Assembly (NCBI RefSeq): GCF_013122565.1
Contig: NZ_CP053258.1
Length of the DNA: 64,000 nucleotides
From: Escherichia coli
Lineage (GTDB): Bacteria; Pseudomonadota; Gammaproteobacteria; Enterobacterales; Enterobacteriaceae
Direction: 5' to 3' (one strand)
The notes under the pieces are model-generated. The model saw nothing but the letters and a program-made list of their open reading frames with translations, was not told the DNA's origin and searched no databases. A program made the position numbers and the translations under genes. Numbering within the stretch: the first letter of the stretch is position 1; every line of letters begins with the position of its first letter. Of this stretch, positions 37,464 through 38,120 are shown one piece after another.

Positions 37464-38120
37464 ACTTAACTCCACTGTCACACTTAACTCCCTTTCCCTT
37501 ATTGGAATGCAGAGAAATAATCCTCGAGAATATGATTTATCATGCATATAAAATAAGAAAAAGGAAAATGAGTAAAATTAGGAAAACATAAAGATACGGG
37601 TTCTTATAAAAACAGAATCCATTGCCGTGGAAAGCGTCACTTACCACAGCATAATAATCCATAATGTTTTTATTGCGAAAACAATCTAATCATAACTACC
37701 GCGAATACTCAATCATCCACAAAATGGATTAAATGTGCTTTTTAATAATTTATTTATATGTTTAATGCATTAATTCTTAACATTAATTGATCAATAATAT
37801 TCACCAAATCAATATCAAAAAATCCGCAAAACATATAATTCAATACAAATCATCAGGATAGGTTTTGCAACGCGTGCATTTTGTCCCCTTTTTCCTCGTG
37901 GATTAGATGCAAAAATTTATTCTGAAATATGTCAACCGATGAAAAGCGTCGGTAGTTAAGCAGAAATTAATATCGCTTGTTTTAACCACAGCAGCACAAT
38001 TAGCTAATTTTACGGATGCAGAACTCATGCTGGCGGGACGTTTTTATTGCGTCAGGGTTGACATCCGTTTTTGTATCCAGTAACTCTAAAAGCATATCGC
38101 ATTCATCTGGAGCTGATTTA
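37464..38120. promoter_or_regulatory. leuO / leuLABCD divergent promoter region
   Basis: Strongly AT-rich ~650-bp intergenic region between divergent leuO and leuL; this locus is known for H-NS silencing and promoter relay. Confidence 0.4.

Follow-up and report, generated by a model that had tools for sequence, protein, structure and literature searches.

The leuO–leuL divergent spacer of Escherichia coli: a probable H-NS-silenced tract with the active leuL promoter at its edge

INTRODUCTION

The leuO locus is a textbook case of a bacterial chromatin protein silencing the gene of a master regulator, and it illustrates how transcription nearby, like DNA supercoiling, can relieve such silencing. 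Among the genes under LeuO control are CRISPR-Cas, bgl, drug efflux and virulence genes. The promoter relay at this locus, with its AT4 (AT7/AT8) silencer, was reportedly worked out by Fang & Wu (1998) and Chen et al. (2001–2005); we know of no demonstration of the relay in E. coli. In Salmonella Typhimurium, the relay runs from ilvIH to leuO to leuABCD and has a defined H-NS nucleation site, and the sequential activation of the three promoters via transcription-driven supercoiling has been described in Salmonella only (PMC4264507, PMC6797219, PMC10981669). Derepression of Salmonella leuO by supercoiling or by transcription from upstream has been described, and one study induced a tetA cassette placed upstream of the gene (PMC10981669). 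According to a secondary source, the 72-bp AT4 element of Salmonella contains a LeuO-binding AT7 beside a repressing AT8, and an H-NS-binding repression element is said to have been shown in E. coli as well (PMC6463858).

In E. coli K-12, H-NS and StpA act as repressors of the leuO promoters P1 and P2 (PMC5025477, PMC3950696). The gene has at least two promoters: full activity of the distal P1 is confined to hns stpA mutants, and the proximal P2 requires BglJ-RcsB. LeuO activates its own gene weakly and represses it at high level; the LeuO sites lie >100 bp from the BglJ-RcsB site (PMC5025477, PMC3950696, PMC6698644). LrhA is a further activator of leuO, according to a review.

Here we analyse the DNA between leuO and leuL within a 64-kb stretch of the E. 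coli chromosome (the window). That this spacer is an H-NS-silenced control region is already known, and its confirmation in the present strain brings nothing fundamentally new. Our modest additions are the conservation across species of its composition, its length and the position of its AT minimum; a located LeuO palindrome; and a conserved block at 37992-38008.

RESULTS

Boundaries of the spacer and comparison between strains

The genes that delimit the spacer are:

36519-37463, minus strand: leuO coding sequence, encoding a LysR-type regulator and H-NS antagonist (open reading frames and annotation)
37464-38120: complete leuO–leuL divergent spacer, 657 bp, 33.2% G+C (sequence, open reading frames and annotation)
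38121-38207, plus strand: leuL (open reading frames, RefSeq and K-12 annotation)
38300-39871: leuA (open reading frames and annotation)

Since the borders of leuO and leuL are fixed by the open reading frames, by the RefSeq and K-12 annotation and by the Rfam leader, the spacer is exactly 37464-38120, and the gene identities and interval given in the initial annotation coincide with this 657-bp divergent spacer to the base. The gene order of the relay locus (ilvIH, leuO, leuLABCD) is present, with leuO divergent from leu. RefSeq gene names were taken via E. coli PapM-32-1, which is 100% identical across the spacer. Identity between PapM-32-1 and the window is limited to 34940-38229, with indels near 9-12 kb and 43 kb; because indels outside this part shift the alignment, our table of intergenic spacers covers only ~12-43 kb. 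A 392-codon open reading frame at 43030-44208 (minus strand), between leuD and the sgrS/sgrT region, has the size and position of K-12 setA and is missing from PapM-32-1.

The K-12 counterpart of the spacer (83709-84367, 659 bp) has the same flanking genes and orientation and is 96.7% identical, with 22 substitutions/indels. One of the differences, G for T at 37901, falls within a hexamer of a leuL-directed promoter that was predicted computationally (PMC3946193). Of 5426 complete E. coli genomes, 5399 have the spacer, usually with 95-99% identity; 5378 keep 80% or more of it and 21 less than that, and the other 27 gave no match. In E. coli FDAARGOS_943 (NZ_CP065615.1, 3288-4161), an IS1A has replaced leuO and the adjoining 496 bp of the spacer, so that the 161 bp beside leuL, with the promoter and the conserved block, are all that is left. 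With IS1A in place of leuO, this is a natural leuO-null strain.

Base composition and curvature

With 33.2% G+C against 52.6% for the 64-kb window, the spacer is the stretch of 657 bp with the lowest G+C there. Windows of 657 bp that are equally low make up 0.06% of the total, and each of them overlaps the leuO–leuL spacer. The "about 650 bp of very AT-rich DNA" of the initial annotation is thus borne out. Within the spacer, 37700-37860 has 23.6% G+C, and 72-mers at or below 20% G+C were confined to this spacer in a scan of the 64 kb. The other spacers at 12-43 kb are shorter and less AT-rich, e.g. mraZ-cra (601 bp, 42.8% G+C) and ilvI-leuO (317 bp, 36.0% G+C). The coding sequence of leuO itself has 45.7% G+C, below its neighbouring genes.

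Runs of A or T were about twice as frequent as composition predicts: there were 22 of ≥4 bases, compared with 11.0 ± 2.9 in shuffled sequences (P ~0.0005), and nine of ≥5 bases, compared with 3.7 (P ~0.008). The longest run is six bases, so the "homopolymeric A/T tracts" of the initial annotation are real in number but hold only in a modest sense as to length.

We predicted DNA curvature, as the initial annotation had proposed, using a dinucleotide wedge model. In a control of the wedge parameters, phased A6 tracts gave 27 degrees per turn and unphased tracts 9.6, i.e. the model behaved correctly. The spacer averaged 10.1 degrees per turn, which is in the top 0.6% of 657-bp windows and ~2.7 standard deviations above random 657-mers of 33% G+C (8.14 ± 0.73 degrees per turn). 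Predicted peaks lie near 37574, 37823, 38004 and 38064. An AA/TT periodicity of 10.75 bp was matched by 1.4% of dinucleotide shuffles.

The ilvI-leuO spacer on the other side of leuO (36202-36518) is also AT-rich, with a minimum of 30.5% G+C in a 200-bp window. A 14-codon gene, yabR, is annotated there in K-12; its equivalent in the PapM-32-1 RefSeq annotation is a pseudogene ("too short").

H-NS occupancy

The protein-binding evidence for the spacer comes from K-12 or Salmonella and is carried over by homology. Published ChIP-chip data for MG1655 place H-NS peaks at 82767-85849 under anaerobic and at 83296-85998 under aerobic conditions (PMC3688515 Table S3). Mapped to the window, they correspond to ~36000-39050 and ~35800-38500, respectively, and both take in leuO, yabR and the ilvI promoter region as well as the orthologous spacer in full. 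The ilvI-leuO spacer falls within the same published peak as the leuO–leuL spacer. The initial annotation would have been contradicted by a lack of H-NS in ChIP data; instead, the K-12 peaks cover the entire orthologous spacer (96.7% identical), so that this outcome is absent.

The 426 bp from K-12 position 83898 (leuL/leuO) are also listed as a "promoter island" that is H-NS-bound "according to all studies", the studies compiled being those of Grainger, Kahramanoglou and Oshima (PMC3661553). Through the K-12 alignment we located its equivalent:

37508-37931: promoter-island equivalent (K-12 83898-84323), H-NS-bound

Together with H-NS/StpA repression at P1 and P2, the ChIP occupancy and the promoter-island listing uphold the reading of the region as H-NS-silenced DNA. 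The accompanying statement that the locus is known for promoter relay holds for Salmonella Typhimurium, where the relay has been shown; for E. coli, we infer it from the same gene order.

The resolution of ChIP-chip is kilobases, so nucleation at a particular element within the spacer is below what these data resolve. We also searched the spacer with an TCGATAAATT-like 10-mer, which we take to be the published high-affinity nucleation motif of H-NS. It was not enriched there (two hits, each with two mismatches, compared with 2.3 ± 1.6 in shuffled sequences); this motif helps H-NS to find its targets but is not required.

The AT minimum and an adjoining LeuO palindrome

Two adjoining features occupy the middle of the spacer:

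37728-37799: AT minimum, 72 bp, 13.9% G+C, the lowest 72-mer of the 64 kb
37797-37815: predicted LeuO core palindrome, ATATTCA-N5-TCAATAT (7-5-7), by match to the palindrome of the cas promoter

The AT minimum is most likely the core of H-NS nucleation and silencing and, by analogy, most likely the counterpart of the 72-bp AT4 element of Salmonella. A 19-bp palindrome (7-5-7) is described at the cas promoter in a published account, where an "almost identical" one is placed in LeuO site I at leuO (PMC6698644). The K-12 casA-cas3 spacer has one perfect 7-5-7 palindrome, ATATTCA-TACTG-TGAATAT. In the leuO spacer, 37797-37815 reads ATATTCA-CCAAA-TCAATAT, matching the cas palindrome at 13 of the 14 arm bases; the score was reached by two of 1000 dinucleotide shuffles, and this is the sole match of at least 12/14 in the 64 kb. 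The palindrome abuts the AT minimum and lies between the leuO and leu promoters. AT minimum and palindrome side by side would thus mirror the AT8/AT7 arrangement of Salmonella.

The leuO promoters and the start of leuO

Towards leuO, the spacer carries:

37464-37495, minus strand: proximal leuO 5' untranslated region and ribosome-binding site, with repeats D1/D2; highly conserved in 41 species
37517-37593, minus strand: conserved block with phased A-tracts, putative P2 region (conservation and curvature)
37651-37679, minus strand: candidate distal leuO promoter, TTCGCA-17-TATTAT (sigma-70 consensus scan); its identity with P1 is putative

The candidate distal promoter has the same hexamers as a leuO promoter predicted under an RpoD genomic-SELEX peak (PMC3946193); we predict a distal leuO start near 37644. 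The strongest predicted bend of the spacer (23.6 degrees per turn, at 37574) lies in the proximal block, and the sequence TTTTCCTA at 37586-37579 (leuO sense) matches the published RcsB half-site wwTTCykA. The centre of the BglJ-RcsB site is 57 bp upstream of the P2 start (PMC3950696); combining this distance with the candidate half-site would put the P2 start near 37525-37540. Such a position is compatible with the geometry in Salmonella, where the leuO start lies 427 bp from an upstream cassette. With a plain -35/-10 consensus scan, the density of sigma-70 promoter-like sites in the spacer was not above that of shuffled sequences (two sites compared with 3.4).

The sequence GGAGTTAAGT occurs twice, ahead of the annotated leuO ATG and ahead of an in-frame GTG 18 nt upstream. 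The ribosome-binding site and start codon of leuO are thereby duplicated, 18 nt apart, and use of the GTG would give a LeuO longer by six residues (…TVELS). Three copies of GGAGTTAAG surround the start at 37406-37491 (minus-strand sense): before the GTG at 37481-37479, before the ATG at 37463 and, as a third copy, within the reading frame of leuO (A-E-L-S-K). At the leuO start, a direct repeat of 29 nt, spaced by 45 nt, suggests an old tandem duplication.

The leuL promoter and the leucine leader

At its right edge, the spacer contains:

38058-38086, plus strand: leuL (leuLABCD) promoter, TTGACA-17-TAACTC, invariant in 41 species
38107-38256, plus strand: leucine-operon leader RNA with attenuator, containing leuL (Rfam RF00512)

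Transcription of leuL would start near 38093. Published sigma-70 ChIP-seq peaks of K-12 are centred at 83731 (height 27210) and 83736.5 (PMC3688515 Tables S1/S2), which map to 38098 and 38092.5 of the window, on the leuL promoter; the peaks listed nearby have heights of 212-5013. The next peaks are at 84897, inside leuO, and 85598, at ilvI (PMC3688515). Elsewhere in the spacer, the leuO promoters included, the same K-12 data contain no sigma-70 peak. The right-hand ~65 bp are therefore a very active promoter rather than silenced DNA, and the sigma-70 pattern is the expected picture for a silenced tract that abuts an active housekeeping promoter.

The leader matched RF00512 with 145.8 bits (E = 2e-33; gathering score 50), and 14 nt of the match lie within the spacer. 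A second Leu_leader match on the minus strand (38225-38279; 33.9 bits, below the gathering score) was rejected as the palindromic terminator read backwards. As the symmetric hairpin AAAACCCGCGC...GCGCGGGTTTTTT also matches on the reverse strand, the attenuator terminator looks bidirectional.

Conservation of length, composition and the AT minimum across species

We searched species-representative genomes for the leu-leader pattern and obtained 120 loci. In 66 species of Enterobacteriaceae and Yersiniaceae (among them Escherichia, Salmonella, Citrobacter, Klebsiella, Enterobacter, Kosakonia, Raoultella, Serratia and Yersinia), leuO is divergent from leuL. Across these, the spacer is 424-1059 bp long (median 638) and has 28.6-39.7% G+C, compared with 48-60% for leuA; its length is 600-680 bp in 42 of the 66 and never <424 bp. 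The G+C content of leuO is 5-10 points under that of leuA in 63/63 species, i.e. in all those of the 66 for which a leuA value was available. The 72-bp minimum has a median of 19.4% G+C, and its centre lies ~295 bp from the start of leuO. Despite differing sequence, it aligns to 37719-37804 in E. albertii, Salmonella, Citrobacter, Klebsiella and Enterobacter, with 10-24% G+C across the five genera, far under the spacer average.

Identity of the spacer to that of E. coli is 0.60 in Salmonella and ~0.50 in Klebsiella and Enterobacter, compared with 0.48-0.51 at the four-fold sites of leuA. Being close to the latter, these values indicate that most of the spacer sequence is barely constrained, while length, composition and the place of the minimum stay much the same. 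Islands of conservation among 41 species are 37461-37495 (the ribosome-binding region), 37517-37593, 37684-37717, 37777-37793, 37992-38008 and 38056-38110 (the leuL promoter and the start of the leader); conservation is absent from 37595-37680 and 37855-37990. The survey is a small extra to what is known of the locus: conservation is chiefly one of composition, of length and of where the AT minimum lies, with a few short blocks besides.

At the loci surveyed in Erwinia, Pantoea, Mixta, Pectobacterium, Dickeya and Brenneria, leuO was not found divergent from leuL. There, an open reading frame of ~575-656 aa is directly divergent from leuL, followed in most of the Erwinia, Pantoea and Mixta loci by one of 174 aa; judged solely by their size and position, the two are probably ilvI and ilvH. 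The spacer at these loci is 475-737 bp long with 34-47% G+C in Erwinia, Pantoea and Mixta, and short with ~50% G+C in Pectobacterium, Dickeya and Brenneria.

A conserved block with likeness to Lrp sites

One of the conserved islands lies upstream of the leuL promoter:

37992-38008: conserved block CAGCACAATTAGCTAAT, at least 90% conserved in 41 species

In ~40 species its core, CAGCACAATT[A/C]GCT, lies upstream of the leuL ATG at a constant distance of 115-136 bp (117-128 in most). The block agrees at 13 of 15 positions with YAGHAWATTWTDCTR, which we take to be the Lrp consensus. With the consensus so assumed, there are eight distinct sites of at least 13/15 in the 64 kb, four of which fall in the spacer, and one site of 14/15 lies in the upstream region of ilvI, which is known to be controlled by Lrp. 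Enrichment within the spacer was weak (8 compared with 3.7 ± 2.1 in shuffled sequences, P ~0.06). We regard the Lrp likeness as a lead rather than a finding.

DISCUSSION

A probable bipartite control region

We consider it highly probable that the leuO–leuL spacer is a bipartite divergent control region of leuO and leuLABCD, made up of an H-NS/StpA-silenced tract with the active leuL promoter at its edge. The right edge (~38058-38120) carries the strong sigma-70 promoter of leuL, followed by leucine attenuator control in the leader RNA. The other ~600 bp are an AT-rich, moderately curved tract, to which H-NS would bind together with StpA. H-NS most likely nucleates in mid-spacer, at the AT minimum (37728-37799), and presumably spreads laterally over the leuO promoters into leuO and on to the ilvI promoter region, keeping leuO off in ordinary growth. 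LeuO, acting at the palindrome 37797-37815, may relieve or tune this silencing and repress its own gene at high level; BglJ-RcsB, upstream of the proximal promoter, and LrhA would counteract it; and so may negative supercoils or transcription invading from neighbouring promoters, i.e. the promoter relay as described in Salmonella.

Alternative readings of the AT-rich tract

The tract could also owe its composition to history. On this account, a low-G+C cassette entered between ilvIH and leuLABCD long ago, and leuO with the AT-rich DNA to either side is what is left of it; H-NS binds it as foreign-looking DNA, regulation being secondary. The G+C deficit of leuO relative to leuA in 63 of 63 species fits such an origin, as do the AT-rich ilvI-leuO spacer (36.0% G+C), the lack of a leuO match in Erwinia, Pantoea, Mixta, Pectobacterium, Dickeya and Brenneria, and the fact that one island predictor and one foreign-gene predictor call the K-12 locus foreign (PMC3661553). 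However, leuO and its long AT-rich spacer extend from Escherichia to Yersinia and Serratia, so any acquisition must date far back, and a signal of history alone should by now have been lost to amelioration; and the spacer of Erwinia and Pantoea, 475-737 bp with 34-47% G+C even without leuO, fits a loss of the gene as well as a gain. We therefore hold this origin to be doubtful, though possible, and it would complement the bipartite control region rather than replace it.

Since the rate of evolution in most of the spacer comes close to that of synonymous sites, the AT-richness could partly be mutational drift. In the extreme form of this idea, everything outside the promoters is functionless DNA at an AT-biased mutational equilibrium and its occupancy by H-NS is incidental. 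In keeping with drift, spacer identity between E. coli and Klebsiella is 0.50 where the four-fold sites of leuA give 0.51 (0.60 compared with 0.48 for Salmonella), 37595-37680 and 37855-37990 are devoid of conservation, and no specific H-NS motif is enriched. Drift does not account for a length held at 600-680 bp in 42 of 66 species, and never <424 bp, in the face of bacterial deletion bias, nor for an AT minimum whose position is shared by five genera at 10-24% G+C. Such values are below the mutational equilibrium according to published estimates. Published genetics largely refutes the idea, having shown silencing by the AT-rich element and derepression of leuO when H-NS/StpA are missing; we judge it very improbable. 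That the 657 bp instead harbour an unannotated small gene or small RNA is scarcely credible: although there are mechanical open reading frames of 29-59 codons in the spacer and the nearby leuO-ilvI spacer holds the small protein gene yabR in K-12, those reading frames lie for the most part where conservation is lowest, none of the conserved blocks is long, the sole sigma-70 peak of the spacer is that of leuL, no Rfam family matched 37464-38106 even at E <= 1, and no gene is annotated within the spacer in K-12 or RefSeq.

Over the 66 species, what appears to be under selection is how the spacer is built physically (its length, its AT content and the position of its AT minimum) and not its sequence. 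The spacer would then be a "composition-encoded" silencer or insulator, conserved across species, that separates a silent regulator gene from a very active housekeeping promoter. Separately, from its sequence, the block CAGCACAATT[A/C]GCT could be an uncharacterised site that ties Lrp directly to the leuL/leuO switch. That both ideas hold jointly is speculative, and we think it unlikely.

Comparison with known systems

The closest system is the leuO region of K-12, as studied by the Schnetz laboratory (P1/P2, H-NS/StpA, BglJ-RcsB, LeuO and LrhA). It is orthologous DNA, and the LeuO palindrome occurs here, as does the putative RcsB half-site. The ilvIH-leuO-leuABCD relay of Salmonella Typhimurium shares the gene order and a spacer of similar length (645 bp in S. 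enterica arizonae), with an extreme AT minimum at the same aligned position and a LeuO site beside it. In contrast, spacer identity is ~60%, the E. coli LeuO palindrome is not conserved across genera, control of leuO by BglJ-RcsB has been reported for E. coli only, and the Salmonella relay was demonstrated largely with the leu-500 promoter mutation and in topA backgrounds. That the relay operates in E. coli is thus an extrapolation from the shared gene order.

The promoter islands of Panyukov & Ozoline (2013) include the K-12 counterpart of 37508-37931, listed as H-NS-bound. That listing used the authors' own scoring program, whereas our plain sigma-70 scan gave two sites against 3.4 in composition-matched shuffles; at the leuO spacer, the "island" property may reflect AT composition and the scoring method.

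The promoter regions of bgl, proU and cas likewise place an AT-rich curved tract under H-NS, and LeuO and/or BglJ-RcsB, or else transcription that invades the tract, can lift their silencing, as at leuO; the cas promoter also has the LeuO palindrome in common with the leuO spacer. Unlike these systems, the silenced leuO gene encodes an anti-silencer itself, and the silenced tract abuts a highly active housekeeping promoter that escapes silencing.
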